A stretch of DNA of 46,233 nucleotides from an archaeon (GTDB lineage: Archaea > Iainarchaeota > Iainarchaeia > Iainarchaeales > 1-14-0-10-31-34), in NCBI GenBank assembly GCA_043815885.1, contig JBDRIL010000026.1, positions 1 through 46,233 of the forward strand. The letters run 5' to 3'. Positions 32,198-46,233 of this stretch are shown here, piece after piece. The notes beneath the pieces were generated by a model that saw only the letters and a program-made list of their open reading frames with translations, did not search any database and had not been told where the DNA came from. The stretch's first letter is position 1, and each line of letters starts with the position of its first letter. Made by a program: the position numbers and the translations under genes.

Positions 32198-32381
32198 CTG
32201 CCTTTTTGATTAAGAGAGGTATCGGAACCTTTTTTTTGCGCGCCTGCTTTTTTTAAAAGCGGGCTTCTGATGCAGGGGGGAGAATCCAAAAAACCTTTTA
32301 CGAAAAGGTTTACGAAAACTCAAGTATACTGCCCCTGCCTTTTTGATTAACCTTTTTTCAAAAGGTTAATGCAGGGGGGAG
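32198..32381. repeat. Duplicated tRNA-Leu 3' end and trailer containing hairpin-plus-A-tail repeats
   Basis: ctgcctttttgattaa at 32198-32213 and 32335-32350; atgcaggggggag at 32270-32282 and 32369-32381. Confidence 0.7.
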
Positions 32382-32508
32382 GATTCGAACCCCCGAAGGC
32401 ACTAAGCCCCCAGATATCTCGAACTTTTTCTTTTCGTTAACGTTTTCTTTTTTACAAAAAGAAAAGGTTACTTGAGTCTGGTCCGTTTGACCGCTTCGGT
32501 ACCCCTGC
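32370..32508 (-). tRNA. tRNA-Leu(CAA) with 55-nt intron at 37/38 (32416-32470)
   Basis: GCAGGGG/CCCCTGC acceptor, CCAGA-CTCAAG|A-TCTGG anticodon arm, long variable arm, GGTTCGAATCC. Confidence 0.93.
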
Positions 32509-32573
32509 ATTAAGGAATAACTAATAATGAATGAAAAGGTATTTTATTTTAATTATTAGAAATTTGCCTGAGA

Positions 32574-32921
32574 TCACTCCAAAGCCAGGCTTGTTTTTAG
32601 TGCTTCATCTACCTTGCGCATTGTGCTTGGTTTTATTGCTCCAATTTTTTTGATTACTCTGTGTTCTATTGAAACAGTTGCTATCTGAGAGCAGTTTATT
32701 GTTCCGTCTCTTTGCAAGCCAGTGTCCTCTGCTTTAATAAAAACATCTGTTGGATATGCTTTTTCCCTTATCCTGCTTGTTATTGGCACTACAATGGTTG
32801 TACTTGAATACTGATTCCCAATATTGTTTTGTACAACAACTGCAGGCCTTATTTTTCCTTGTTCCGAACCCATAGCTGGATTAAAGTCAACCAGAATTGT
32901 GTCTCCTCTTTTAATGTTCAT
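32574..32921 (-). CDS. mazF: MazF/PemK toxin endoribonuclease
   Basis: KRGD....FNP..GSEQGK.RP.VVVQN..GN, VPITS; likely start ATG 32921 overlapping the antitoxin end. Confidence 0.93.
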   Translation of the reverse strand: MNIKRGDTILVDFNPAMGSEQGKIRPAVVVQNNIGNQYSSTTIVVPITSRIREKAYPTDVFIKAEDTGLQRDGTINCSQIATVSIEHRVIKKIGAIKPSTMRKVDEALKTSLALE

Positions 32922-33177
32922 CTGAAAACCCGCTTGCTTCTGCACTAGCATTTATCATTTCTTCGCTTAGCTCTTTGTTTTCCTTTGCATGTCTTACATA
33001 GTATTCTTTCATCAACTCTTCTTTCTGCTTTTTACTAAAAGCTTTCTCAACCGTTATTTTGTTGTTTTCTATTCTCACTATTACCCTGTCCTTTGGCTTT
33101 ATTTTCTCTATTTCCCTGATGTCCTTAGGAATAGTTATTTGACCTCTTTCTCCAACAACCGCAATACTCTCATACAC
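32911..33177 (-). CDS. AbrB/MazE-family antitoxin
   Basis: VGERGQITIPKDIRE...IKPKD; directly upstream of mazF. Confidence 0.9.
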   Translation of the reverse strand: MYESIAVVGERGQITIPKDIREIEKIKPKDRVIVRIENNKITVEKAFSKKQKEELMKEYYVRHAKENKELSEEMINASAEASGFSDEH

Positions 33178-33339
33178 TCACATCACCAAACATACTTATT
33201 ACATACTATTTCATATCAAAAACATATTTAAGTATTGCGTAGCAGACAGCACAAAAATATAAACTCCAAAGCAATTATATACGATTTCGGGAGAGTGAAT
33301 TTCCCCTGAAACACTAACACCGAAGGAAAAGTATTTTTA

Positions 33340-33708
33340 TTATATATTATTCCTTTTAATCCAAAGCATTCTTTGAATACTTCTAATTTCCTTTTGGTCT
33401 TTTTTGTCAAAGGGATTCAATTTATATGCATTCGCCAAAAATCCTTCTTTTCCTAAAACACTCTTTAATTTTCTTACATTTATTTTAAATCCCTTTGGAG
33501 GAGCAAAAAATAAGGGAGCCATTAATGTCTTGAATGGCCTTATTCCAGCCACAACAACTATTTTTGGGTTCACCATTCTTCCACTGACAATCCAGCAATC
33601 GCCCAATCTGCGCTTTTCCTTTTTTGCTCTGGCAAATCGTTGTATACCTCTAGGCTTACGAAAATCAATTCTTCGGCTCTGTTTGTGAACTCCCCCTTTT
33701 CCAGGCAA
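33340..33708 (-). CDS. Basic orphan protein
   Basis: TTG start 6 nt after the upstream gene; MPGKGGVHKQSRRIDFRKPR. Confidence 0.55.
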   Translation of the reverse strand: MPGKGGVHKQSRRIDFRKPRGIQRFARAKKEKRRLGDCWIVSGRMVNPKIVVVAGIRPFKTLMAPLFFAPPKGFKINVRKLKSVLGKEGFLANAYKLNPFDKKDQKEIRSIQRMLWIKRNNI

Positions 33709-33714
33709 AAGACA

Positions 33715-34068
33715 TCAACCAAATAAAATTATTCCTGCTACAACCAATGCATTAAATATCACCCAAAGAGAGTAATTAAGGATTATTGGTTTTTCTTTAT
33801 GCATTAAACCATAGACAACCCAAATGCATGAAAAGACAAAAAAAGAAACCCATGAAATAAGTGAAACCCCTGAAGCATTCCTTTCAGACCAAATCTTCCA
33901 TGCCTGAGGGAAAGCCATTATTGGCCCAATTATTCCAACCAAATAAATCAGGTAATCCATTCTCCTCTTCCATTTGTCTGGATGAGGAAAAGGCTCATGC
34001 TTTAAATGAATCCGCTTCCTCAAATGGGAATGATGCATTCCTTTATCCATGATATTCATAAAGGGCAA
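33715..34068 (-). CDS. SemiSWEET/PQ-loop family 3-TM transporter
   Basis: AFPQAWKIW..NASGVS..W..YG..PII.N; true start may be a later Met. Confidence 0.8.
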   Translation of the reverse strand: MPFMNIMDKGMHHSHLRKRIHLKHEPFPHPDKWKRRMDYLIYLVGIIGPIMAFPQAWKIWSERNASGVSLISWVSFFVFSCIWVVYGLMHKEKPIILNYSLWVIFNALVVAGIILFG

Positions 34069-34109
34069 AAGAAATATTTAAAGCTTCCGTAAGAACTGAA
34101 TAATTAAAA

Positions 34110-34297
34110 CGCGGAGGGTGGGATTTGAACCCACGAGGGCTTTCGCCCAAGAGCTCACTGCAAACAACAATTAATCCCTTTCTTTTTTGGGATTACGTTC
34201 CCTTTTTCTTTTGGGGTAACGTAGAACTTTTCTTTTTCGGGAAAAAGAAAAGGGCTCGTAGCAGGCTCTCGCCGTAACCGGACTGGGCCACCTCCGC
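34110..34297 (-). tRNA. tRNA-Ser(GCT) with 103-nt intron at 37/38 (34156-34258)
   Basis: GCGGAGG/CCTCCGC acceptor, G73, AGAGC-CTGCTA|A-GCTCT, GGGCGAAAGCCC variable arm, BHB helix CTGC/GCAG. Confidence 0.93.
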
Positions 34298-34300
34298 ACC

Positions 34301-34412
34301 AGAAACTACGTTTCCGGTACCTTCCTTACCGAAGATACCTTTTCCTTAATCAGAAACTACGTTTCCGATACCTTCCTTTTTGATCACTTTGTGGTATTGC
34401 AAGCAATACCAC
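34301..34412. repeat. Direct repeat plus perfect hairpin upstream of tRNA-Ser
   Basis: agaaactacgtttccg(g/a)taccttcctt at 34301-34327 and 34352-34378; gtggtattgc-aa-gcaataccac at 34391-34412. Confidence 0.8.
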
Positions 34413-34529
34413 TCATTACACATTAATAATTTTGGATAAAGTTAATAAAAAGCATTCCTTCCGCGGATTCAGGAATAATTAAATAAAGTATGGACTAGAA
34501 AGTATTTAGATTTTTTGGGAGAATCATTT

Positions 34530-34724
34530 ATGGAGACTGAATTCAGGTTGCTGGCTGGATTCATTATTGCAATAGTATCTATGCCCTTTTTCTTCTTGAA
34601 TAACACACTCATTACAATAGTTGCATTGGGCGTGCTTGCAGTTGGAGCAGCAATTTTCTTTAAATCATTGGGAGAACTGTACCTCTTCAGAGGACAAGCA
34701 ATGAAAGAAAAAGAAAACAAATAA
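34530..34724 (+). CDS. Small 2-TM membrane protein
   Basis: GGGAG RBS, two hydrophobic segments. Confidence 0.6.
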   Translation: METEFRLLAGFIIAIVSMPFFFLNNTLITIVALGVLAVGAAIFFKSLGELYLFRGQAMKEKENK

Positions 34725-34783
34725 ACTTTCAAGAATTAAATTAAATCCTAACTAATTCACTTAATTTTTTTAAAAATAAGCCA

Positions 34784-34935
34784 CGCCCAAGGTCGGACTC
34801 GAACCGACAACCTACCGGTTGCTGCAATACCAAAATGAAACTATTTTTCTTTTTGGGCAACTTACACTTTTTCTTTTTCTAAAAAGAAAAAGGGCAGTTA
34901 ACAGCCGATTGCTCTACCAATTGAGCTACCTGGGC
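34784..34935 (-). tRNA. tRNA-Asn(GTT) with 79-nt intron at 37/38 (34820-34898)
   Basis: GCCCAGG/CTTGGGC acceptor, ATCGG-CTGTTA|A-CCGGT, GGTTCGAGTCC, BHB helix CTGT/GCAG. Confidence 0.94.
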
Positions 34936-35419
34936 AGTAGAACAAAAGAAGTAAAGAAAAATATATTAAAATATTGTATGGAAAAGAGGAAAAAAGGCAA
35001 TGGAAGAGAATTGGATAAGAGGCATATGAGGCATATATATTACTATTAATTATACATAATAATATTATAGGGGGCATAAAGCAAAAATCAAACAAAAGAG
35101 TTTGTTTGTGGGATAAGGGAAAAAATACGCTTTATATGGGATTTAAGCGGATATAACCCGTTTAAATGAATAAATTAATTTTTTCACTTAAATAGTTGAA
35201 TTATACATTACTTTTTTCCTCGCAAAAAGGATTTTTTTAGTTTAGGCATCCTATACATAAGAAAAAAAGTGTATTTTTAAACTTTTCTTTTTTTTTGGGG
35301 GAAAATCAGGCTCTTTTCGGGAAACAAAAGCTATTTAAAGGATTATAGCGTAATATTATTGCAGTAACACTTTTATGCATAAGTGTTTTATTGACTTGTT
35401 TGGAAGAGGGGTGATTTAT

Positions 35420-36493
35420 TTGAGAAGTGTTATAGAAGAAGCTATTCATAAGGGTACTACCAAAGTCGAGGAAAAGATTGAGGAATTTGGTGCTCCAAAA
35501 ATAATGGTAATTGGTACTGGTGGTGCAGGATGCAATGCTGTAAACAGATTGGCTAATATGGGTATTAGCGGAGCCCAGTTAGTTGCAGTGAATACAGACA
35601 AACAGCATCTTTCAATCATTAATGATGAATTGACTAAAATCCTTATTGGAAAGAGTGTCACTAGAGGGCTTGGAGCAGGAGGCTATCCTGACGTTGGAGC
35701 AAAGGCAGCAGAGGTTTCAAGACAGGCACTCGAAGAAGTAATGAGCGGAGTTGACATGCTGTTCCTTACCGCTGGAATGGGCGGAGGAACAGGAACTGGT
35801 TCTGCTCCAATAATCGGAGAAATAGCAAAGGAACAGGGAGCAATAGTTATTTCCATTGTCACTTATCCATTTGCTTTAGAGAAAGCAAGACTGATTAAGG
35901 CAGAAGACGGAATAGAGGACTTAAGAAAGGTAACAGATACAGTTGTTGTTATTGACAACAACAGATTAGTGGAATTGGTTCCTAATTTGCCTATACAGGA
36001 TGCATTTAAAGTAGCTGATGAAGTAACCGCAAGAACTGTCAGAGGGATAACTGAAACCATTACACAGCCTTCATTGATTAACCTGGACTTTGCTGATGTA
36101 AGGTCTGTAATGGGAAACAAGGGATTGAGTGTTATTGCTGTAGGCGAAAGCAAGTCAGTGAATAAAGTGGATGAAGTGGTTGATGACACACTCAAAAATG
36201 TATTGCTTGACGTGGACTTCGCTGGAGCTTCTGGGGCATTGATTCACATTACCGGAGGGCCGGAATTAACTTTAGGAGAAGCAAATGCAGTGGGAGAAAT
36301 GCTGACAGAACAGATTGACCCAAAAGCAATAGTAATCTGGGGTGCAAGAGTTGACCCAACCTTTGAAAACAAGATGGAAGTAATCAGCATCTTCACTGGA
36401 GTGCATTCCCCTTACATCAAGAGCCCTGATGCAGGAGAAACAATGGTTGCAAAATCAAAATCAAGGAGCAGTTTAGGATTAGGGTATGTTTAA
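35420..36493 (+). CDS. ftsZ: Cell division GTPase FtsZ, copy B
   Basis: [16 protein letters not shown]; start placed at TTG 35420 after GAGGGGTGA RBS, matching the N-terminus of copy A. Confidence 0.97.
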   Translation: MRSVIEEAIHKGTTKVEEKIEEFGAPKIMVIGTGGAGCNAVNRLANMGISGAQLVAVNTDKQHLSIINDELTKILIGKSVTRGLGAGGYPDVGAKAAEVSRQALEEVMSGVDMLFLTAGMGGGTGTGSAPIIGEIAKEQGAIVISIVTYPFALEKARLIKAEDGIEDLRKVTDTVVVIDNNRLVELVPNLPIQDAFKVADEVTARTVRGITETITQPSLINLDFADVRSVMGNKGLSVIAVGESKSVNKVDEVVDDTLKNVLLDVDFAGASGALIHITGGPELTLGEANAVGEMLTEQIDPKAIVIWGARVDPTFENKMEVISIFTGVHSPYIKSPDAGETMVAKSKSRSSLGLGYV

Positions 36494-36499
36494 AACCAT

Positions 36500-36523
36500 C
36501 CCTTTTCTCTTTTTCTTTTTTTT
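36500..36523 (+). terminator. Oligo-T archaeal terminator after ftsZ copy B
   Basis: Long T-rich tract directly after the stop codon. Confidence 0.5.
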
Positions 36524-36569
36524 AATGAAAGATTTATTAATGAGTTAGCTTATTCTTTTATTGATTTTA

Positions 36570-36722
36570 ATGGATAACAGAAGCCAGGCGGCATTGGAAT
36601 ATCTTTTATTAATTGGAGCCGCAATACTGATTGCTGCAGTGGTTGTTGTCGTACTTGATAATTTATCTAAGAATCTAACAAACAAAATAGACAATAGGGT
36701 TAACGAAATTGATGAATGGTAA
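36570..36722 (+). CDS. Small class III signal peptide (type IV pilin-like) protein, 50 aa
   Basis: Manual translation MDNRS/QAALEYLLLIGAAILIAAVVVVVL...; Q+1/E+5 pattern; below the ORF-track cutoff. Confidence 0.85.
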   Translation: MDNRSQAALEYLLLIGAAILIAAVVVVVLDNLSKNLTNKIDNRVNEIDEW

Positions 36723-36739
36723 AAGCTTAGTTTAATAAT

Positions 36740-38194
36740 TCAAATAAACTGTGATCCAAGCCATAATAGCATTGGCAGTACTAATACAAACATTATTGGA
36801 AGAATCAGTAACAGGAATATCTTTGAAACAAATTTCTCTTTTTCTTCTATTGGTTCTTTTCCAGGGAGATAAGAAGCAAAAATTATTTTTGCTATCCTTC
36901 CTCCGTCAAATGGTTCTATAGGCAGGAAGTTAACTATTGCGATAAGGAAACTCAATAACGTCAGCCACCATAAAAAATTATTTCTTGAGGTTGGGTCAAG
37001 GAATTGGTCATAGAGAATCAAGGTTATTTCTTCTTCTGTATTGTAGGGCTCTGCGACTTTTTCTCCTAAAGCAAAACCATAGGCATTAATTTCTTCATTT
37101 ATCCCTAATGTCACGTTCTTTAATTCATTTGTTTCAGTCAAGACAAGTAGGTCAATGCTCTTGTTTTCTGAAGCAGTGTTTCCAATCAAGTCCTCTCTAA
37201 CGTTAATCTTTTTTCCGTTTACTTCAATTACCTTCCATCCTCCCTCCAGTTTTCCGTAAGCCGGAGATGCATAAATTGTTCCGCATAAATTGATGTTCTG
37301 GTCGACTCCAACTATATACATTCCTTCCACGTGTGGTTCCTTGAATTCCTGAATCCATGGAACAATTGAAGGCATGAAAACAAATAAAACGAAAAGATTC
37401 AGTAAAAGAATAAAGAACAACAAGGAAATAATGTTTCCCATTGGGCCAGCAGCAAATATTCTCAGAGCCTTTCTTTTATCTAATTTCTTTAATTGTTGTT
37501 CGTCTGGTTCAACAAAGGCTCCAACCGGAAGAAATCCCAATAAAAGCAGTCCAGTGCTCTTTAATTTTATTTTTTCCTTTACAGCAGTTATTCCATGGAA
37601 TCCCTCGTGAATTATCATTATAATGAAGAAGGAAATCCATACATGAAGTGGGACAGTGATTGGAACTGTTGGAATCTTTACTCCTGGAATGATTGGAGCG
37701 ATTCCAGAACAGGTCTCGATTCCTGCAATCGTTTTAATTAGAATGTCTATTGCAGTGAAGATTAAGAGAAGCATTGTAAAGCCAGCCAAGCCGAAGAGAG
37801 AAAAGGCAAGGCTTACAGGATTTATGGGGAGAGAGGGAAGGTATATGAGAATGAATGATTTGAGGAAGGCTTCCCCAAAAAATAAATTAAATAAAAAATA
37901 AATCACGGAAAGAGAAAAAACGAATAAAAGGATTCTTTTTATGCCTCCCAGCTTTTTTCCATAAAGGTAATCTATTGCAATTACTCCAAAACCAAGAATT
38001 AAACCTGCTTCAGCCAGAAAATTAATCAGTTTAGGGTATTTCGAGAATTTATTGAACCAGGGAAGTGGCTTTCTTGTCCTGATCATTGAGGCAATAAAGT
38101 AGGTTTGGGCTCCAAGGAATCGCTTGAATAAATAAGTGATTACAATGAATACCGCAATAAGAATCCATAGAATTATTGCCCAGTCAAATTCCAT
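36740..38194 (-). CDS. Site-2 protease (M50) with PDZ-like insert
   Basis: HEGFH, GAFVEPD, AAGPMGN, NFLPIEPFDGG. Confidence 0.93.
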   Translation of the reverse strand: MEFDWAIILWILIAVFIVITYLFKRFLGAQTYFIASMIRTRKPLPWFNKFSKYPKLINFLAEAGLILGFGVIAIDYLYGKKLGGIKRILLFVFSLSVIYFLFNLFFGEAFLKSFILIYLPSLPINPVSLAFSLFGLAGFTMLLLIFTAIDILIKTIAGIETCSGIAPIIPGVKIPTVPITVPLHVWISFFIIMIIHEGFHGITAVKEKIKLKSTGLLLLGFLPVGAFVEPDEQQLKKLDKRKALRIFAAGPMGNIISLLFFILLLNLFVLFVFMPSIVPWIQEFKEPHVEGMYIVGVDQNINLCGTIYASPAYGKLEGGWKVIEVNGKKINVREDLIGNTASENKSIDLLVLTETNELKNVTLGINEEINAYGFALGEKVAEPYNTEEEITLILYDQFLDPTSRNNFLWWLTLLSFLIAIVNFLPIEPFDGGRIAKIIFASYLPGKEPIEEKEKFVSKIFLLLILPIMFVLVLPMLLWLGSQFI

Positions 38195-38213
38195 TCAAAA
38201 TCCTTCTTAAAAT

Positions 38214-38678
38214 TCATTTCTTTTCCTTTAAAAAATCAGCAAGAGTTATTGCGCCTGCTTCATCCCTGCCTTCATCCTTTACCTGGTCTTCCTTTTTTTC
38301 TCTTAAACTTCTTCCAATAAATTTCTCCAGTTTTCTTATTACTTCATCTGTTGGAGTGAATTTTCCTGACTCAATTCTCTGGACTACTGATTCCTTTTCA
38401 AAAATCTTTTCAGCCAATTCCTTTATTTTAAGGTTTCTTTTTTCTCTTTCTTTTCTGATTATCTCTCCAATTCCGTCAATTAACTCCATTTCATATGATT
38501 CCGCTCTCTTAAATGGGTTAGGAGAAGGTTTTATTATCCTTGCGGGTTTTTTTGGAGGAGTATGAAGGACTTTTCCATAAGAAGAGCAATCATCACATAC
38601 ATTCATCTTCACTCCATCAGTTGAAATAATGAAAGCATTCTTTCTTGCAATCAGTTTCCCGCAAACCTCACACTGCAT
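38214..38678 (-). CDS. Archaeal multiprotein bridging factor MBF1 (Zn ribbon + HTH)
   Basis: CEVCG..VCDDC..YG, HTH with IESGKFTP, ITLADF tail. Confidence 0.92.
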   Translation of the reverse strand: MQCEVCGKLIARKNAFIISTDGVKMNVCDDCSSYGKVLHTPPKKPARIIKPSPNPFKRAESYEMELIDGIGEIIRKEREKRNLKIKELAEKIFEKESVVQRIESGKFTPTDEVIRKLEKFIGRSLREKKEDQVKDEGRDEAGAITLADFLKEKK

Positions 38679-38811
38679 AAAAAATAATAGAAATAGAATA
38701 AGATTAATAAATTAATGATTTGGCTAGTAATGGAACTAATTAATTTTTTATCCCAAAAAAAGTTTTTTTCGAGTTAAATTTATTAATAAAGAAAGCGTTT
38801 TAGTTATTGAA

Positions 38812-38988
38812 ATGGATTGGGAAACAAAAAAAGTGCTTTTATTGATGCTTGGGGTAATTATTATTTTACTGATTACTTGGTACATTGTATTGATAATTAC
38901 TTACACTCCTCCCTCATATGTTGGAGAGTATACTAATCTTCGACAAACAGACCACGTTTACAACTATCTTTGGCATTTAGATACATAA
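38812..38988 (+). CDS. Small single-TM membrane protein, 58 aa
   Basis: Manual translation MDWETKKVLLLMLGVIIILLITWYIVLIITYTPPSYVGEY...; TATA-like tttattaa upstream. Confidence 0.55.
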   Translation: MDWETKKVLLLMLGVIIILLITWYIVLIITYTPPSYVGEYTNLRQTDHVYNYLWHLDT

Positions 38989-39184
38989 TAGATTCACTTA
39001 AACCCTTAACTAAATTCACTTATTTCTTTCGTTTTCTGTCGTTGAAACTTTATCTAAAAAGAGCATGATTAAGTAGGATGCAATACTACTTACTTAATGA
39101 TTAGAAAAGGAAAAATGCTTTAAATAAGAATTCAAGAAATTTGCCGTGAAGAATAATAGGGAAAGCCTCCAATGAAAAAAATTT

Positions 39185-39392
39185 GAGATAAAAAAGAAAA
39201 AGAAGGTTTTATTTTCTCTTTTTTTTGCTTTTGTCTTTCTGCACAGCGACCCCCCCAAGTGAACAGTGAAATATTCGCCTGTATCTTGGAAAGAAAATAG
39301 GAGGAAAGAAAAGGGTTCTTTCCTCAATTCTAAGAGAGTTGGTTGAACTTAGCGGATATAGAATCGGAATAGGCTCACCTTGCTAAGTTCAT
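39185..39392 (-). ncRNA. Candidate structured RNA or leader (strand uncertain)
   Basis: Stems at 39344-39391, 39301-39325 and 39255-39289; TATA-like element at 39416-39424; T-tract on the minus strand near 39190-39205. Confidence 0.3.
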
Positions 39393-39458
39393 ATATAACT
39401 GCGCTTGAGGTTATATTTATATATTTCTCTTTCTTGTTATTAGTTGGGGGAAAACGTT

Positions 39459-40484
39459 TTGGGAGTAGCTATTGGAGAACTAATTGAAAAAGAAGAAATA
39501 GAACTGGATTTACTGGAAGGAAAGATTGTTGGAATTGATTCCTTTAATATTCTTTATCAATTTCTTTCAAGCATCAGGTCCAGAGAGGGAGAGCCATTAA
39601 TGGACGGAGAGGGAAGGGTCACTTCTCACTTGACTGGATTACTGTACAGGACAAGCAATCTGATTAATCGAGGCATTAAGCCAGTGTTTGTGTTTGACGG
39701 AAAGCCATCAAAATTGAAGGAAGATACAAGAAAGAAGAGAAGAAAGATAAGGACTGAAGCAAAAAGCAAGTATGAGAAAGCCAAAAAAGAAGGAAAGACA
39801 GAGGAAATGAGGAAGTACGCCCGGCAGACTTCTTCTCTGGATGAGGAAATGATTAAGGAAAGCAAGGAGTTGGTTGAATTTATGGGTCTGCCGGTAATAG
39901 AGGCGGCTTCAGATGGAGAGGCACAGATTGCATTCATGGTTGAAAAAGGAGAGCTTTACGGAACAGTAAGCCAGGACTATGATTCACTGTTGTTCGGTTC
40001 ACCAATACTCTTAAGGAATATAACTGTTACCGGAAAGAGAAAGTTGCCTGGAAAGGATGTTTATATAGAGGTTAAGCCAGAACAAATAAAATTAAAAAGC
40101 TTTTTAGAGAAATTAGGAATAAACAGAGAGAAATTGGTCTGGATGGGGGTACTGGTGGGAACTGACTTCAATAAAAAATTTCCAGGCATTGGCCCAAAGA
40201 CTGCATTGAAGTTAGTCCAGGAAAATGATTCATTTGAAGAAATAATAAAGGAAACAAAATTCAAGCCTGACTTTGATTACAGGGAAGTGGAAAAGATTTT
40301 TATGAAGCCGGCATACTCAAATGAATACAGCATTAAATTCAGTGAACCAAAAAGAGACAAGATAATCGAGTTATTGGTTGAAAGGCACGACTTCAATAAG
40401 GAAAGAGTCCAGAGTGTAGTGGATAAGCTGGAGGAAAAGGCAGAAGAAAAAGGAAGCCAGACTTCTATAGGGAAATGGATGTAA
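39459..40484 (+). CDS. fen: Flap endonuclease 1
   Basis: MGV start at TTG 39459, YQFLSSIR, VFDG, DGEAQ, SQDYD, GTDFN, C-terminal PIP box QTSIGKW. Confidence 0.97.
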   Translation: MGVAIGELIEKEEIELDLLEGKIVGIDSFNILYQFLSSIRSREGEPLMDGEGRVTSHLTGLLYRTSNLINRGIKPVFVFDGKPSKLKEDTRKKRRKIRTEAKSKYEKAKKEGKTEEMRKYARQTSSLDEEMIKESKELVEFMGLPVIEAASDGEAQIAFMVEKGELYGTVSQDYDSLLFGSPILLRNITVTGKRKLPGKDVYIEVKPEQIKLKSFLEKLGINREKLVWMGVLVGTDFNKKFPGIGPKTALKLVQENDSFEEIIKETKFKPDFDYREVEKIFMKPAYSNEYSIKFSEPKRDKIIELLVERHDFNKERVQSVVDKLEEKAEEKGSQTSIGKWM

Positions 40485-40485
40485 A

Positions 40486-40513
40486 AAAACTTTTAATAAA
40501 AGTTTTATCAAAA
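40486..40513 (+). repeat. Short hairpin-plus-A-tail repeat
   Basis: aaaactttt-aat-aaaagtttt-atc-aaaa; same layout as copies at 32290-32318 and 32341-32369. Confidence 0.6.
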
Positions 40514-40559
40514 AAACATTGCATACCTTCGGTATACAATAAAAAAGGAGTGATTTAAA

Positions 40560-41876
40560 ATGAATAGAAAAAAGGCAATAATAATGGGGGCTGCAGGAAG
40601 GGATTTCCATGAATTCAATGCATACTTCAGGGACAATGAAGAATTTGAGGTTGTTTGCTTTACTGCAGAACAGATTCCAGGAATAGATGGAAGAACCTAT
40701 CCAAAAGAATTATCAGGAAAACTCTATCCAAAGGGAATTCCAATCTATCCTGAATCAGATCTCCCCAAGCTAATAAAGGAAAAAAAAGTTGATTTGGTGT
40801 TCTTTTCTTATTCCGATGTCTCATTCAATTACTTAATGCAGAGGGCATCAATTGCCTTGGCTGGGGGAGCTACATTTAGCATTAATGGGCCAGGGCAGAT
40901 TCAATTAAAGAGCTCAAAGCCGGTGATTGCAGTCAATGCAACCAGGACAGGCACTGGTAAAAGCCAGACTACAAGATATATTGCAGAAATAATGAAGAAG
41001 AAAGGAAAAAAGATTGTTGTAATAAGGGAACCCATGCCTTATGGTGACTTAGTGAAGCAGGCAGTAATGAGGTTTGGAAAGTACGAGGACTTAGAGAAGA
41101 ATAAATGCACTATTGAGGAAATGGAGGAATACGAGCCACACATAATGAATGGAAACATAGTTTATGCCGGAGTGGACTATGAAAAAATTATCAGGGAAGC
41201 AGAGAAAGAGGCTGAAGTGGTTTTATGGGATGGAGGCAACAATGAATTGAGTTTCTATGAAACAGATGCATTGTTTGTAGTGGCTGACCCTTTCAGGGTA
41301 GGGCATGAACTGAGTTATCATCCCGGAATGAGTAATTTACTGATAGCCGATGCAGTAATAATCAATAAAGTGAATACAGCTGAAAGGAAAAAGGTTGAGG
41401 AATTAAAGGAAAATATAAGAAAGTATAATCCGAATGCAAAAATAATTGAAGCAAACTCTACACTTATAGTGGAAGGAAACGAGGAACTGAAAGGAAAAAA
41501 GGTTTTGTGTGTAGAGGACGGTCCTACTCTAACACACGGAGGAATGAATTTAGGAGCCGCATATATGGCTGCAAAGCAGGCTGGAGCTGAAATCGTTAAC
41601 CCTAAGCCTTTTGCTGTAGGGGAAATAAAGAAGACCTTTGAAAAGTATCCTCACTTGAAGGACGTGCTTCCTGCAATGGGTTACGGAGGCCAACAGGTAA
41701 AGGATTTAGAGGAAACAATAAAGAAGGTTGAATGCGATATAGTTTTGGTGGGGACACCGATTGATTTAAAGAAGATAGTAAAGACTGACAGGAAAATGGT
41801 TCGAGTAAAATACGATTTAGAGGAAGTGAATCCAGGAGAAATAGAGGCAGTGATTGATGAAAAGTTAGAAAGCTAA
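40560..41876 (+). CDS. cDPG-synthetase-like P-loop NTPase (COG2403 type; arginine synthetase ArcE candidate)
   Basis: MGAAGRDFH, RTGTGKSQT, PMPYGDL, WDGGNN, VEDGPTLTHGGM, LPAMGY. Confidence 0.8.
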   Translation: MNRKKAIIMGAAGRDFHEFNAYFRDNEEFEVVCFTAEQIPGIDGRTYPKELSGKLYPKGIPIYPESDLPKLIKEKKVDLVFFSYSDVSFNYLMQRASIALAGGATFSINGPGQIQLKSSKPVIAVNATRTGTGKSQTTRYIAEIMKKKGKKIVVIREPMPYGDLVKQAVMRFGKYEDLEKNKCTIEEMEEYEPHIMNGNIVYAGVDYEKIIREAEKEAEVVLWDGGNNELSFYETDALFVVADPFRVGHELSYHPGMSNLLIADAVIINKVNTAERKKVEELKENIRKYNPNAKIIEANSTLIVEGNEELKGKKVLCVEDGPTLTHGGMNLGAAYMAAKQAGAEIVNPKPFAVGEIKKTFEKYPHLKDVLPAMGYGGQQVKDLEETIKKVECDIVLVGTPIDLKKIVKTDRKMVRVKYDLEEVNPGEIEAVIDEKLES

Positions 41877-41914
41877 GTTAAGCTTAAAAAGAATAAAAGA
41901 GTTATTCTAAAGAA

Positions 41915-43063
41915 ATGAATAAAAAAATCGTTCTGATTTCTTTATTGCTGGCTTTATTATTATTTCAGGGCTGCTTACAGATAATGAAGTCGGCTGAAAA
42001 AACCACTGTTTATGAGTACAGGGCTAATGGAAGTGTTTTAATTAAGGAAATATATGAGGGAAGACTGGAAAATGATACTGAGGAATGGGAGGAAGACTGC
42101 ACTAAACTGTTAAGGGAAAGAATTGATTCCTTTATAAGTGACATGAATTCATCCAGGGGAAGGACTCAGGATAAAGAAAAACTGGCTGAACTGGATAAGG
42201 CGATTGAAGTATCCCAAGGGATAAGGAATAATACTGCCTGCAGGTTAGTGAGAGATAATTTGGATGGAGTGTTTACTCTTTCAATTGAATTCAGTCCAGA
42301 ACTCATTCAAAAGATAAATGATTTAAATGAAGAGGAAGTCAGTAAAGGCGGTTTCTCACTGAGCGTAATTGGAAAAAAATTGAATGATGGTTCAATTGAA
42401 GTCAGAATCCCTGTAAATAAAGAAGAAGGAGGAATATTTGATTTGGCTCCGGATGCTAGAGAGAAAGCCATAAAGATTAAGGTTGAAGGAAACGTAATAG
42501 AGTTGGAACCAAAAGAATACGAGGAAGAGGACGGTTACTATATATTCAGGGATCCAGGGGAATTATATGAGGACGAAATATCCCTGAAGTATGCATTTAA
42601 TCCTTTTGCGGTATTGTTTGGAGGCATTGGAGAAATAGCTTTATTGGTTGGATTGTTGTTTGGAATACTTCTAATAATAATCTTAATCGTGGCAGTGATA
42701 AGCATGAAGAAAAAGCCAGTGAAAAAAGTAGAAATAAAAAGAGGCCATGATTCTACTCCAAAAAAGGAAGAATCAGTTCAGAAACCAGTGGAAGAACTAG
42801 AGGAAGTGACATCAGAAACCGTAAAAAAAGAAAAACAGGAGGAAGAAAAAGCTTCCTCAGAACCCCTTAGTGAAGACGATATGGAATTGCTGAGAGTAAA
42901 GTTAATGGAGTTATTGAGAGAGGAAATGGGTACAACAGAAATAGAGTTAAAAACAATAACAAAAATCAAGGACGCCTATATGGCAAAAGTAATAATAATG
43001 AACAAAATATATTTACTGGAGCTTGACTCAAAACTAAGGATAAAGGACTTCAAAAAAGTCTAA
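41915..43063 (+). CDS. Putative lipoprotein with an additional C-proximal TM helix
   Basis: MNKK-hydrophobic-FQGC lipobox-like N-terminus; second hydrophobic stretch then a charged tail. Confidence 0.7.
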   Translation: MNKKIVLISLLLALLLFQGCLQIMKSAEKTTVYEYRANGSVLIKEIYEGRLENDTEEWEEDCTKLLRERIDSFISDMNSSRGRTQDKEKLAELDKAIEVSQGIRNNTACRLVRDNLDGVFTLSIEFSPELIQKINDLNEEEVSKGGFSLSVIGKKLNDGSIEVRIPVNKEEGGIFDLAPDAREKAIKIKVEGNVIELEPKEYEEEDGYYIFRDPGELYEDEISLKYAFNPFAVLFGGIGEIALLVGLLFGILLIIILIVAVISMKKKPVKKVEIKRGHDSTPKKEESVQKPVEELEEVTSETVKKEKQEEEKASSEPLSEDDMELLRVKLMELLREEMGTTEIELKTITKIKDAYMAKVIIMNKIYLLELDSKLRIKDFKKV

Positions 43064-43722
43064 TTTTTAAGGTAGGCGCCCTTCAATGGAACAAATACAA
43101 AGAATCCCTTCATTGAATCCCTGTTGAATGGCTTATCTTTAATTTTTTCCATTATCATCATCTGCTGGGAGAAGGAGTCTCCTACTGGAGCAACTGCCCT
43201 GCCTTTTTCATTTAATTGTTCAAACAATGGTTTTGGAATGAACGGACAGGCAGCAGAAACAAGTATCCTGTCAAAAAGAGCTTTTTCCTCCAAACCTTTA
43301 CTTCCATCCCCAAGAAATAATTCAATATTCTTGCTTCCGTTTACTTCAAGATTCTTTTTTGCCTGTTCAAATAATTCCTTTACTAATTCAATTCCATACA
43401 CTTTTCCTTTTTCTCCAACTAATTCTTCAAGCAATGCACAGACATAACCGCTTCCTGCTCCTACCTCCAATACCTTCATTCCTTTTTTTACATCCAATAA
43501 TTCCATCATTATTGCAATAGTGGAAGGCTGGCTGATTGTTTGATTGAATCCAATAGGAAAAGCGTTATCAGAGTAAGCTTGCTCTTTCATGTGTTGAGGA
43601 AAAAAGACTTCTCTCTTTAATTTCAGGAAGGCATTCTCTAATTCAATTGATTCAATTGCCCCTGAAGCTTTCATGAAGTACACTAATTGCTTTCTTTTTT
43701 CAGTGAAAGCGTCTTCTTTCAT
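43060..43722 (-). CDS. pcm: Protein-L-isoaspartate O-methyltransferase
   Basis: QTISQP, VLEVGAGSGY, GDGSKG, FVFVPL. Confidence 0.96.
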   Translation of the reverse strand: MKEDAFTEKRKQLVYFMKASGAIESIELENAFLKLKREVFFPQHMKEQAYSDNAFPIGFNQTISQPSTIAIMMELLDVKKGMKVLEVGAGSGYVCALLEELVGEKGKVYGIELVKELFEQAKKNLEVNGSKNIELFLGDGSKGLEEKALFDRILVSAACPFIPKPLFEQLNEKGRAVAPVGDSFSQQMMIMEKIKDKPFNRDSMKGFFVFVPLKGAYLKN

Positions 43723-44648
43723 TTATTTTCCCTCTTCTTTACTTCAGCCATTAATTCCTGTATTTTTTTGTAGGAGTCCAGTTCTTCTTCCTTCATTACA
43801 GCAGTAGAGGCAATATTACTCAAATCAAATTTCTTGGTAATTATCAATGAATGGGTATCCAAGACTGCTTTCGTCTTTTCTAAAACTAACGCTTTTTTCT
43901 TTAATTCTTGTTTTTCCTTTCCCTTGTCTATAATGAGGTATTCTTTCTTGCTTCCGACTGCCTTGAATGGAGAGTGGCTCAATTCAATTAAATCCAATCC
44001 CATTCCATGGATTTTTTCCAATACTTCGTCCCTTATTTTTTCTCCGAATAATTCTTTCTTCTTTTGAAGCTGTGATTTATAGAATTCTTCCAGTAAATTC
44101 TTTTCCAGAATTAAATCAGTCTTCAGGACTTCCTCTAACTTCTTTGCTGTTTCAAGAGAAGTAGAAGCCCCGTGCTCAAACCTATAGAGAGATTCTTTTG
44201 CCAGACCCACTCTTTCAGCCAGTTTTTCAAGTGAGAGCTGAAGTTCCTTTCTCTTATCCCTTAATTTATCTGCATTGATTTCCACTATCCCTCTTCCCTT
44301 AAAGGATTTAACATACGGAGAAAAGGAAGAAAGCATTGAAGTAAAGGTGGAGAAATTCATTACCGGAATGGAATACCTTTCATAAGTCATTCCGTTCTTT
44401 AAAACAAATTTTTTTGTTTTCTCTCCTATAATTAATACCATTGCATTGAATGCATTCCCTACCTTCAATAATTCTTCTGCCTGTTCTGGCCTTACTCCAT
44501 CAATATTGGAATAGACTTTTATTATGAGGCTTAATCCATTTCTCCTTGCAACCAAATCAAAGCATGAATTGGAATCAATAAATGAATTAACAGTAAATCC
44601 GTTTTGTTTCAGAAAAGAAATTACTTTTGCCAGCAGTATTTCTCTCAT
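43719..44648 (-). CDS. Archaeal HTH transcriptional regulator (COG1395 type)
   Basis: SCFDLVARR, IKV..NID, central XRE HTH SLEKLAERVG...YRFE. Confidence 0.85.
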   Translation of the reverse strand: MREILLAKVISFLKQNGFTVNSFIDSNSCFDLVARRNGLSLIIKVYSNIDGVRPEQAEELLKVGNAFNAMVLIIGEKTKKFVLKNGMTYERYSIPVMNFSTFTSMLSSFSPYVKSFKGRGIVEINADKLRDKRKELQLSLEKLAERVGLAKESLYRFEHGASTSLETAKKLEEVLKTDLILEKNLLEEFYKSQLQKKKELFGEKIRDEVLEKIHGMGLDLIELSHSPFKAVGSKKEYLIIDKGKEKQELKKKALVLEKTKAVLDTHSLIITKKFDLSNIASTAVMKEEELDSYKKIQELMAEVKKRENK

Positions 44649-44659
44649 TTCAATTCCTT

Positions 44660-45484
44660 CTACAATAATCCCAAAAGGAATGCAATTAAACCCAAACCCA
44701 TTCCAATCTTGCTGTAGGCTTGGCTTTTCCTGAAATTTCTTCCTTGAAGTAATTTAACTGAATACATTAAGGAAATAACTGCAAGAACCATAAAGAAAAG
44801 ATAAAAGACATTGTTTAATCTATTCCAGTAAAGAGGAATAAACCCGATAATTATTGCCCCCAAATAAAGAATCAGAATAAAGTGATTCAGTACTGGGAAA
44901 GAGATTTTTTGCGGGAGAGTAATTTTTACTCCTTTTTCTGTTTCAAGGTCCTCCATGTCCTTGGTTATTTCCCTTCCTGCATTGGATAGCAATGCAGAAA
45001 AGAATAACACAAGTGGAAGACAGAACCACATTTCAATCAATGCCCCGTAAATTATGGTAAAAGCAACACTGAAAGCAACAATCCAGTTTCCAATGAATTT
45101 ATATTTTCCCAGAAAACCTGAATAAAAAATCAAGAGCAGGGAAAAAATTATTGCTACAATGAATGCAGTGAAGTGAATAAAGTAAGAAATAATTATTCCT
45201 GTTAAGAATAATATAAATGAATAATAAAGGGCATTCATTCTGCTGATATTTCCTTTTACTAATGCCCTTTCTTTTTTTGCTTTCCTGTCTATTGCAAAAT
45301 CAAAGTAATCATTTATTGTCTGGCCTCCGGCACAGACAAAGAATACTGCAAGCATTGCATACATTACAAGAAGGTTACTGAATTGAATTGAACCAATTGC
45401 CAGAGAATAACCAATGAATGCTCCAATTGCTGCAATAAAACAATTCGTTGGACGGATTATGAGAAAGTAATCTTTTAGATTCAT
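44660..45484 (-). CDS. UbiA-family prenyltransferase (DGGGP synthase-like)
   Basis: RPTN, NDYFDFAID, REITKDMEDLE. Confidence 0.88.
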   Translation of the reverse strand: MNLKDYFLIIRPTNCFIAAIGAFIGYSLAIGSIQFSNLLVMYAMLAVFFVCAGGQTINDYFDFAIDRKAKKERALVKGNISRMNALYYSFILFLTGIIISYFIHFTAFIVAIIFSLLLIFYSGFLGKYKFIGNWIVAFSVAFTIIYGALIEMWFCLPLVLFFSALLSNAGREITKDMEDLETEKGVKITLPQKISFPVLNHFILILYLGAIIIGFIPLYWNRLNNVFYLFFMVLAVISLMYSVKLLQGRNFRKSQAYSKIGMGLGLIAFLLGLL

Positions 45485-45485
45485 T

Positions 45486-45650
45486 TTAAACCTTTTTAAC
45501 AGCCTTTCTCTTTAACCTCAATCTCTTTGAACTACATTTCCTGCACTTAGAGGGTTTTTTCCCTGGAGAAGCCTTGTTCTTTGCATTACACTTCATGCAA
45601 ATCCATACATTGCTGAAAATCCTTGCTTCAGCCTGCTCAAATTTAGCCAT
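45486..45650 (-). CDS. rpl40e: 50S ribosomal protein L40e
   Basis: Manual translation MAKFEQAEARIFSNVWICMKCNAKN...KCRKCSSKRLRLK; AGGTGA RBS; below the ORF-track cutoff. Confidence 0.95.
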   Translation of the reverse strand: MAKFEQAEARIFSNVWICMKCNAKNKASPGKKPSKCRKCSSKRLRLKRKAVKKV

Positions 45651-45775
45651 TTTTTTATTTCACCTTAAAAAACAAGTAACACTAAGAATTTATAAACAAT
45701 TATACATAGGATTATTTAATATCTTAAACCTAATTAATTAAAAAGAAATGAGTTTAATATTCTTTCTATAGCAAT

Positions 45776-45925
45776 GCTCCGATAGTGTAGCCGGTTAAGC
45801 ATTCAGGCCTTTCACCGCCCTTTTCTTTTAGAAAAAGAAAAGTGCAGGTTGCCCAAAAGAAAAAGGGATTATTTATTATCCGCGGAAGATAGCCTGTGAC
45901 CCGGGTTCGAATCCCGGTCGGAGCA
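45776..45925 (+). tRNA. tRNA-Glu(TTC) with 76-nt intron at 37/38 (45815-45890)
   Basis: GCTCCGA/TCGGAGC acceptor, CAGGC-CTTTCA|A-GCCTG, GGTTCGAATCC, BHB helix CTTT/GAAG. Confidence 0.94.
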
Positions 45926-45987
45926 TTCAACCTCCAGTTAAAAAGCACCCAAAACTCTTAAAAAGAAAAGAAAAAGGGTGTTTTGGT

Positions 45988-46233
45988 ATGACTGGAGAAA
46001 TTAATTCTTTTCACAATTTCCAAAAAATCCATGAAAATTTAGTGAAAAGGTATCAGGAAGACGAAACTATTTCTAAAGAAAACAAGGCACTACTAAATAA
46101 ATACCTTCAATCCCTCTACAACGATGACATAAAGCTTTCAAGAGTAAATAAAGTATTCTATCAAACCTATTTCTTAACCAAAAAAATCAATAAGGACTGG
46201 AGTAAAGTAACAAGAGAAGACTTAGAAAACCTG
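45988..46233 (+). CDS. Probable tyrosine recombinase/integrase, N-terminal part (runs off the window edge)
   Basis: Open to the window end: ISKENKALLNKYL...LSRVNK...KDWSKVTREDLENL, resembling the N-terminal domain of archaeal tRNA-targeting integrases; starts 62 nt after tRNA-Glu; catalytic domain not visible. Confidence 0.65.
   Translation, partial: MTGEINSFHNFQKIHENLVKRYQEDETISKENKALLNKYLQSLYNDDIKLSRVNKVFYQTYFLTKKINKDWSKVTREDLENL

Follow-up and report, generated by a model that had tools for sequence, protein, structure and literature searches.

All four intron-bearing tRNA genes in a 46,233-nucleotide stretch of an Iainarchaeota genome (GenBank assembly GCA_043815885.1, contig JBDRIL010000026.1; the whole stretch is called the window here) carry a copy of the same structured repeat, which starts 0-4 nt past the 5' splice site of the intron. 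This repeat, hereafter the module, is built from one pyrimidine arm and two purine arms. Our best reading, to which we give a probability of about one half, is that the module is a dispersed and probably mobile structured element whose functional unit would be the folded single strand and which tRNA introns would carry passively. The earlier note on this stretch had described the introns of tRNA-Glu, tRNA-Asn, tRNA-Ser and tRNA-Leu as homologous, each with a hairpin and a mirror-repeat purine tail. Part of that description stands, since they share a structured, multi-copy module and are not four independent introns; outside the module, the four introns are mutually unrelated sequence.

On the strand drawn here, which is the tRNA-sense strand in every copy of this genome, the module reads as a YYGCCC flank, a pyrimidine arm, a loop, a purine arm, a linker and a second purine arm. 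It is about 45-62 nt long and non-coding, with a left flank of the form (A)CYGCC, a pyrimidine arm of 8-15 nt (counted after the C), a loop of 3-5 nt and a linker of 8-14 nt, conserved as G-T-G-Y-A-R-G-T-T-G-C-C-C. The first purine arm is the Watson-Crick partner of the pyrimidine arm, the first half of the linker pairs back to the left flank, and the second purine arm (the third arm below) is the parallel complement of the pyrimidine arm.

Covariation of the arms and of the flank-linker helix

When the window was scanned for a pyrimidine 8-mer with its hairpin partner and an exact parallel-complement tail, four modules were found, and none in each of 300 first-order Markov windows. Chance or low complexity is thereby ruled out as the source of the pattern. 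The bare word AAAARAAAA is not enriched in the window (33 found, 32.3 expected); it is thus the arrangement, not the composition, that carries the signal. Several claims of the earlier note are borne out at this level: the module sequences that it quoted are present as written, the Glu and Asn linkers do differ at 2 of 13 positions, and stem and tail are T4CT4 with A4GA5 in Glu and T5CT5 with A5GA5 in Asn. The mirror order of the tail was harder to judge from the window, since the arm cores are nearly symmetric: a test on 8-mers gave 4 mirror against 4 direct matches in the window and 9 against 10 in the genome, which does not discriminate, and it was replaced by an anchored full-arm test.

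For the full-arm test, copies from related genomes were parsed by the linker, with the G positions of the arms and the entire first arm left free to vary; the search pattern required purines on both sides of the linker, which imposes nothing on the Y tract and part of the purine content on the R tracts. A ten-copy MAFFT alignment was too ragged in the variable-length arms, and pattern search with scripted parsing was used instead of a covariance model. A first set began with 81 hits, representing 66 unique copies, of which 3 lacked a hairpin and were dropped, leaving 63 copies in 15 genomes. The second set, from 16 genomes of other families, had 41 parsed copies and retained 39 after the removal of 2 without a hairpin. 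The third arm, starting directly after the CCC that precedes both arms, is the exact parallel complement of the first in 58 of the 63 copies of set 1. The same exact relation holds in 36 of the 39 of set 2, giving an exact, register-anchored third arm in 94 of 102 copies from 31 genomes. The stems of these copies contain 1231 Watson-Crick pairs and 8 others. They fall into 39 distinct cores, 35 of which have an exact third arm. When arms were paired across different copies, a mean of only 10.8 and a maximum of 22 were exact (2000 permutations), against the 94 observed. Among the 78 asymmetric stems, mirror order was better in 63 and direct order in none, with 15 ties. The mirror relation proposed in the earlier note thus survives a larger alignment.

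The tracts follow one another as Y, R, R on one strand in all 102 hairpin-bearing copies. With a Watson-Crick second tract and a mirror third tract, this layout is, as far as sequence criteria go, that of intrastrand triplex-forming (ITxF) class II. The arm code would accordingly read as an intrastrand triple helix, of the purine motif (class II; A.A-T and G.G-C triads) on the strand drawn and of the pyrimidine motif (class IV; T.A-T and C+.G-C) on its complement. Few natural sequences have an evolution that calls for a three-stranded fold. Here all three strands stay matched through 39 arm variants in at least 31 genomes, which is, to our knowledge, comparative evidence of unusual clarity for selection on an intrastrand triplex or on a fold that obeys the same rules of pairing.

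The same counts bear on a simpler fold, a two-state hairpin switch in which the pyrimidine arm would alternate between the two purine arms without any third strand. RNAfold does join the pyrimidine arm of Leu to its second purine arm, a pairing made possible by the symmetry of the A4GA4 cores, and the halves of the linker can pair with each other (GCA/TGC, with a 5-bp variant, CCGCA/TGCGG, in genome G007). The third arm is, however, the parallel and not the antiparallel complement of the pyrimidine arm, and the outcome for the asymmetric stems removes the alternative-hairpin reading; we hold such a switch to be extremely unlikely.

The hairpin is also longer than the arms alone, as the covariation of a flank-linker helix indicates. 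In the DNA fold of the Glu module, the left flank pairs with the first half of the linker. Among the 83 of 102 copies that are in the standard register, flank Y2 and linker R6' are T-A in 58, C-G in 23 and otherwise combined in 2; flank C4 and linker G3' are C-G in 73, T-A in 3, T.G in 2 and other in 5; and flank G3 and linker C4' are G-C in 39, G.T in 39 and other in 5, with no C.A. A mismatch of C5 with T2' and a bulged A5' are themselves conserved. The wobbles fit the strand drawn only, because its complement would have a C.A mismatch in half of the copies. A mini-hairpin inside the linker (GCA-AGT-TGC) was considered as the main pairing and rejected: R6' covaries with the left flank and not inside the linker, so the flank-linker helix is the better supported of the two, although both may form in alternation. 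For the hairpin alone, the DNA folding energies of the modules range from -7.7 to -12.5 kcal/mol.

These pairings can be set against a duplex H-DNA interpretation, in which the mirror repeat of the purine arms would extrude a triplex under supercoiling and locally modulate transcription, replication or recombination. The two purine arms are indeed an exact mirror repeat, and local rearrangement is seen at the uS10 site described below. H-DNA, however, needs neither the inverted-repeat pyrimidine arm nor the flank-linker helix, both of which are kept by covariation; the wobble on one strand points to a folded single strand; and a structured spacer of 12-14 nt is long for H-DNA. We therefore consider this interpretation improbable, even though H-DNA forms from mirror repeats and triplex repeats have been linked to genomic instability (excerpts of Holder et al. 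2015, PMC4666352).

In the reading that we prefer, that of a mobile structured element, the three arms would be kept matched because the folded single strand is what gets copied or recognised. The folding strand would most likely be single-stranded DNA of the strand drawn, as in the bacterial PIT/TMECO repeats. The element would spread, or be repeatedly replaced, at the edges of transcribed units, doing no harm there; in the tRNAs of the window it would ride in the intron beside the 5' splice site and be removed by splicing.

Distribution and genomic contexts

The linker pattern occurs in 21 of 41 relatives, where the reversed control gave hardly any matches; of the 8 other genomes in the family, 7 have it. 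Across the phylum it was found in 61 of 215 genomes, with 172 matches against 17 for the reversed control (table count). All 61 holders belong to one order of Iainarchaeota; the 19 genomes that represent other orders of the class all lack the pattern.

Contexts were assigned to the copies of set 1 by heuristics (ARAGORN calls, T-arm motifs and open-frame tests). tRNA introns hold 27 of the 63 copies, 17 of them in sense orientation at the 5' splice site and 10 in antisense orientation at the 3' splice site. Nine copies lie in tRNA 3' trailers, 2 in tRNA 5' leaders (antisense), 12 at 0-4 nt past a protein stop codon and 6 beside a divergent gene start; the context of 7 is unclear. Every one of the 56 classified copies is oriented with its flank/hairpin side towards the gene or exon and its third arm away from it. 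The earlier note had proposed a mobile element that uses bulge-helix-bulge (BHB) introns as its insertion sites, and the range of these sites has to be widened: the module is also found in trailers, in leaders, after stop codons and at both ends of introns. A check of contexts with Infernal covered 40 loci, with many long-intron tRNAs uncalled at the gathering score. It confirmed four tRNA leaders (L009, L030, L208 and L217), two antisense introns (L010 and L066), six trailers (L026, L074, L202, L226, L230 and L236) and six sense introns (L016, L023, L223, L224, L228 and L235).

Beyond the window but in the same genome, introns with the module interrupt tRNA-Asp (on contig C28) and a long-arm tRNA on C29 (stem AAAAGAAAAGAAG, tail GAAGAAAAGAAAA). 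In five further tRNA genes (on C18, C19, C45 twice and C48), the module comes directly after the 3' end. At C29:17774-17969, ARAGORN gives the label Ala-tgc with an odd intron position, and the intron contains the clearest asymmetric module of the genome; a long variable arm and the loop CUUGAG suggest that this gene is tRNA-Ser(UGA). The introns of tRNA-Ser(GGA) and tRNA-Ser(CGA) (C29:19624-19764 and C53:1463-1589) hold a hairpin only, or a degenerate one, without a matching third arm, and these hairpins may be truncated copies. tRNA-Ile(tat) is present twice (C19:1651-1726 and C45:11389-11464) with identical module-bearing trailers, as a real or an assembly duplicate. In the C18 copy and in L074, which are orthologous, the distal end of the third arm doubles as a Shine-Dalgarno-like GGAG of the gene that follows.

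Such placement would also suit a cis-element of the host that marks where transcription units end, either a bidirectional terminator or a folded insulator or end-protecting structure. In the end-protection version, the module would stand next to mRNA 3' ends and to the ends made by RNase P, RNase Z and the splicing endonuclease, and a triplex-type fold would be compact and nuclease-resistant. This alternative would account for the YYGCCC/hairpin side abutting the gene or exon end in every classified copy and for the dozen copies close behind stop codons. The oligo-T runs of 4-7 on both strands, the conservation of the linker across many families of the order and the pyrimidine-motif orientation directly upstream of the tRNA 5' end in the four confirmed leaders are further points in its favor. 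The orientation of the module to the host transcript is mixed, however (38 sense and 18 antisense in set 1), T-tracts within tRNA introns would be harmful if they terminated transcription, and orthologous genes are often without the module. In the pair L040/L049, the module separates two genes of the same direction, where a Shine-Dalgarno-like motif is present and a promoter would not fit, which argues against a strong terminator, and the PIT repeats of bacteria have neither promoter nor terminator activity according to excerpts of Holder et al. (2015, PMC4666352). We regard a host element as a possible but less than likely explanation.

The copies in antisense orientation raise a related proposal, in which a true triple helix would form in vivo at RNA-processing boundaries and cap the ends made by RNase P or the splicing endonuclease (U.A-U and C+.G-C triads). 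The capping sites would be the pyrimidine-motif copies upstream of tRNA 5' ends and at the 3' ends of introns. A pyrimidine-motif copy upstream of a tRNA has a layout that we take to resemble that of MALAT1, where an RNase P site comes after the triple helix, and the antisense order of the module (U-rich, stem, U-rich, A-rich) is presumably that of the ENE-type triple helices of MALAT1 and MEN-beta as well. The tRNA 5' end, which is the RNase P site, follows within a few nt in the four confirmed leaders. Unlike in the ENE/MALAT1 case, this layout is present only in antisense orientation upstream of tRNA 5' ends, that is in a minority of copies, and the sequences appear unrelated. We consider capping doubtful; if true, it would give prokaryotes an equivalent of the MALAT1-type 3'-end module. 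The confinement of the module to sites of RNA cleavage and ligation might even reflect spread via an RNA or single-strand intermediate. At one of the leaders (L009, 1350-1460, genome G038), a small Cys-rich open reading frame (ORF) stops 41 nt short of the pyrimidine-motif copy, which in turn lies ahead of tRNA-Arg, so that the order is gene, triplex module, tRNA.

The contexts also bear on the other proposal of the earlier note, that the introns form a family of functional RNAs. The excised intron, possibly circular, would then be a stable structured RNA with a triple helix. The module is common to the four introns of the window and to at least two more in the genome, and its hairpin and flank-linker helix tolerate G.U as RNA structures do. 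Nevertheless, the same module exists outside introns and, inside them, in either orientation, and the introns themselves are not conserved in orthologues, the tRNA-Asn gene being intron-less in 5 of 10 relatives. The tRNA-sense RNA, moreover, would be of the purine motif, and according to excerpts of Holder et al. (2015, PMC4666352) RNA does not form triplexes of this motif. An intron-derived functional RNA is thus very unlikely, and that proposal is not upheld.

Turnover at orthologous sites and relation to known repeats

Orthologous sites differ in whether they hold the module. The relatives without an intron in tRNA-Asn are G006, G007, G009, G010 and G011. In G001 and G008 the tRNA-Asn intron is unrelated and contains another small hairpin repeat, and in G004 a different, likewise unrelated one is found; those of G002 and G005 contain a triplex module with another type of linker (GTCTACGGTCTRTCC). 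The hairpin repeat that fills the tRNA-Asn introns of L180 (G001) and L185 (G008) is of the type AAAACTTTT-loop-AAAAGTTTT-ATCAAAA, a copy of which is found in the present genome in the intron of tRNA-Gly(GCC) (C31:683-825).

The 3' end of the uS10 gene shows a similar variety. In G004 the module lies directly after the TAA. The site is empty in G006, with flanks recognisably conserved, and G007 has a different arm variant with the linker CCGCAAGTTGCGG, followed by the tail of the old copy. In G008, a copy of the G004 type is split by an insertion of about 100 nt, and five other genomes have no module at this position. The insertion in G008 includes one copy of another repeated intergenic hairpin, with a loop of the type GCTTTATGC (for example GCACAGCTTTATGCTGTGC), which was also seen at L042 (G006), L051 (G005), L066 (G007) and L195 (G008). 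Presence, absence, replacement and nesting fit the look of a mobile or frequently converted repeat. The turnover at orthologous sites thus suits an element that is mobile or readily lost, and in this the mobile element of the earlier proposal finds support.

Several points weigh against a mobile element whose folded single strand is the functional unit. Random insertion does not explain the strict gene-proximal polarity or the spacing of 0-4 nt from stop codons, and the empty uS10 site of G006 could equally be a precise deletion. In the one filled/empty pair, at uS10, there are no clear terminal inverted repeats and no target-site duplication. Some copies are kept at orthologous sites, one example being the copy in the trailer of tRNA-Pro(CGG) here, for which G002 has an apparent counterpart; together with the order-wide conservation of the linker, such retention would also fit a host function. 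As for enzymes, the Y1 transposase (PF01797) was not found in the element holders G000, G001, G004, G006, G007 and G008; it was found in G002, G003, G005 and G019, with the linker pattern not found in G003. Reverse transcriptase (PF00078) shows no link to the element either, and both candidates were rejected as mobilisers for want of co-occurrence. The triplex itself is predicted from the arm code, and the signals that tell which strand folds are weak, with the wobbles favoring the strand drawn. In 10 imperfect copies, the odd arm is the pyrimidine arm (Y1) in 5, the first purine arm (R1) in 2 and the second (R2) in 3, in a by-eye tally. A loop with CC goes with a tail with GG in 18 of 21 copies, mostly from one genus, and in 3 of 6 distinct types, and a loop with GG goes with a tail with CC in 4 of 12 copies. 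This link, weak by distinct types, is indecisive for the hub strand, because CC/GG cannot separate parallel from antiparallel pairing; we tentatively regard the complementarity as a clamp of 2-3 bp. Finally, the copy counts come from related genomes, which are not independent, and leave aside copies with other linkers, such as GTCTACGGTCTRTCC in the tRNA-Asn introns of G002 and G005 and CGTTAACG in the Leu intron of the window.

The closest known systems are bacterial. Excerpts of Holder et al. (2015, PMC4666352) describe the Y-R-R layout as class II, report that TMECO forms an intrastrand triplex in vitro and present TMECO/BoxC/PIT as markers of unstable intergenic DNA; the PIT elements are attributed there to Hoyne et al. 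2000. As described in those excerpts, the bacterial repeats resemble the module in having three tracts on one strand (pyrimidine, purine, reverse-Hoogsteen purine) with a complement of the pyrimidine-motif class. They are likewise multi-copy, non-coding and dispersed, with no associated transposase and a neighbourhood that varies between close relatives. The module differs from TMECO in being A/T-rich, with A.A-T triads and 1-3 G.G-C. The TMECO consensus in the same excerpts, CCCTCNCCC-N3-6-GGGNGAGGG-N3-GGGNGAGGG with G/C-rich 9-nt stems, does not describe it. Whereas TMECO has a near-identical consensus, the module has 39 arm variants; its second spacer is 8-14 nt, with a conserved 12-14 nt linker that pairs with the flank, against a second loop of 3 nt in TMECO; and it is archaeal, polar to gene or exon ends and present in tRNA introns, whereas TMECO is described as always intergenic and without orientation bias. 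The two share no sequence homology. We therefore describe the module as an A/T-rich archaeal analogue of PIT/BoxC/TMECO, of the same kind but not a member of that family.

Among archaeal systems, the nearest is the transposition of BHB tRNA introns in Thermoproteales (Fujishima et al. 2010, as summarised in part of PMC4090602), for which gain at the DNA level is presumed by a mechanism given as unknown. There too, very similar sequences are found in the introns of unrelated tRNA genes; unlike those introns, the module also lies in trailers, in leaders and after stop codons, the introns of the window are all at the 37/38 site, and the lineage is DPANN. The REP/BIME and MITE-like elements share with the module the form of a short, structured, extragenic and non-autonomous repeat at gene ends, present or absent between relatives; the module differs from REP/BIME by a third arm in mirror order, by its position inside tRNA introns and by the fact that RAYT/Y1 was not found in most holder genomes. 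In the literature searched, supplements excepted, triplex-type repeats were described neither for the tRNA introns of archaea nor for DPANN genomes. The module would extend the PIT/TMECO phenomenon of bacteria into Archaea, in a form rich in A/T, and would link triplex repeats with the boundaries of tRNA exons as well as with the long introns that are typical of tRNA genes in DPANN genomes. It also suggests a concrete source from which archaeal tRNA introns could be gained and grow, by a mechanism that a passage of a 2014 review (PMC4090602) called unknown.

tRNA genes and module copies of the window

The host genome comprises 1.16 Mb in 62 contigs, with 36.8% G+C, and introns interrupt about 20 of its 43 ARAGORN tRNA genes. 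With introns allowed, ARAGORN finds four tRNA genes in the window, every one interrupted at the canonical site; without introns it finds none there, and the modules thus mask these genes from default tRNA finders. The genes are tRNA-Leu(CAA) (32369-32509, minus strand, intron 32416-32470), tRNA-Ser(GCU) (34109-34298, minus strand, intron 34156-34258), tRNA-Asn(GUU) (34783-34936, minus strand, intron 34820-34898) and tRNA-Glu(UUC) (45775-45926, plus strand, intron 45815-45890). The Asn and Glu genes are also called by Infernal/Rfam at the gathering score, and the Leu gene by the E-value run only (40.5 bits); tRNA-Ser(GCU) has the ARAGORN call only, with no Infernal/Rfam tRNA match in the window scan. 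That scan gave tRNA matches as the only significant Rfam matches near the modules. All four introns are at the 37/38 site (positions 39-41 of the ARAGORN gene strings, which begin one base ahead of the acceptor stem), and Infernal locates the insertion within the anticodon loop of the Asn, Glu and Leu genes. The ends of the introns are pairable, as CUGC/GCAG in Asn and Ser and CCGC/GCGG in Glu; minimum free energy folds did not reproduce the exact 3-nt bulges. Among sequencing runs listed as containing parts of the window, there are only three DNA runs of groundwater metagenomes and no RNA run; contigs from the three gave only short-sided joints and pieces of other organisms, with nothing usable on excision or variants.

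The Asn module (34844-34898, minus strand) consists of the flank ACTGCC (34898-34893), C plus T5CT5 (34892-34881), the loop AG, A5GA5G (34878-34867), the linker TGTAAGTTGCCC (34866-34855; also given in the form GTGTAAGTTGCCC) and the third arm A5GA5 (34854-34844). In Glu (45814-45867, plus strand), the flank ACCGCC (45814-45819) and C plus T4CT4 (45820-45829) are followed by the loop AGA, A4GA4G (45833-45842), the linker TGCAGGTTGCCC (45843-45854; also given as GTGCAGGTTGCCC), the third arm A4GA5 (45855-45864) and GGG (45865-45867). The Ser module (34200-34254, minus strand) has CCC plus T4CT5 (34254-34242), the loop CCCG, A5GA4G (34237-34227), the linker TTCTACGTTACCCC (34226-34213) and a third arm A4GA5 with GGG (34212-34200). 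An extra linker-plus-tail unit, AACGTAATCCC and then A6GA3GGG, follows on the same strand (34176-34199), but its sequence is no match for the stem. As at the uS10 site of G007, it may be the leftover tail of an earlier copy, since leftover tails of that kind would explain the second linker and tail of this intron. The Leu module (32425-32467, minus strand) is a short-linker variant, made of CC plus T4CT5 (32467-32456), the loop GTA, A5GA4 (32452-32443), the linker CGTTAACG (32442-32435) and the third arm A4GA5 (32434-32425).

Downstream of tRNA-Glu, at 45944-45988 on the plus strand, a purine run (AAAAAGAAAAGAAAAAGGG) lies in the loop of a small stem, CCAAAAC...GTTTTGG; no pyrimidine arm accompanies this run, which may be a relic tail. 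On the same strand as tRNA-Leu and about 65 bases upstream of it, an ORF (32574-32951, minus strand) encodes a strong PemK/MazF-like toxin domain (Pfam E 2.7e-34). Elsewhere in the genome, the 71-nt intron of tRNA-Trp (C45:381-525) has GATGA motifs resembling C/D boxes, and it is presumably similar to the known tRNA-Trp intron guide RNA of other archaea.

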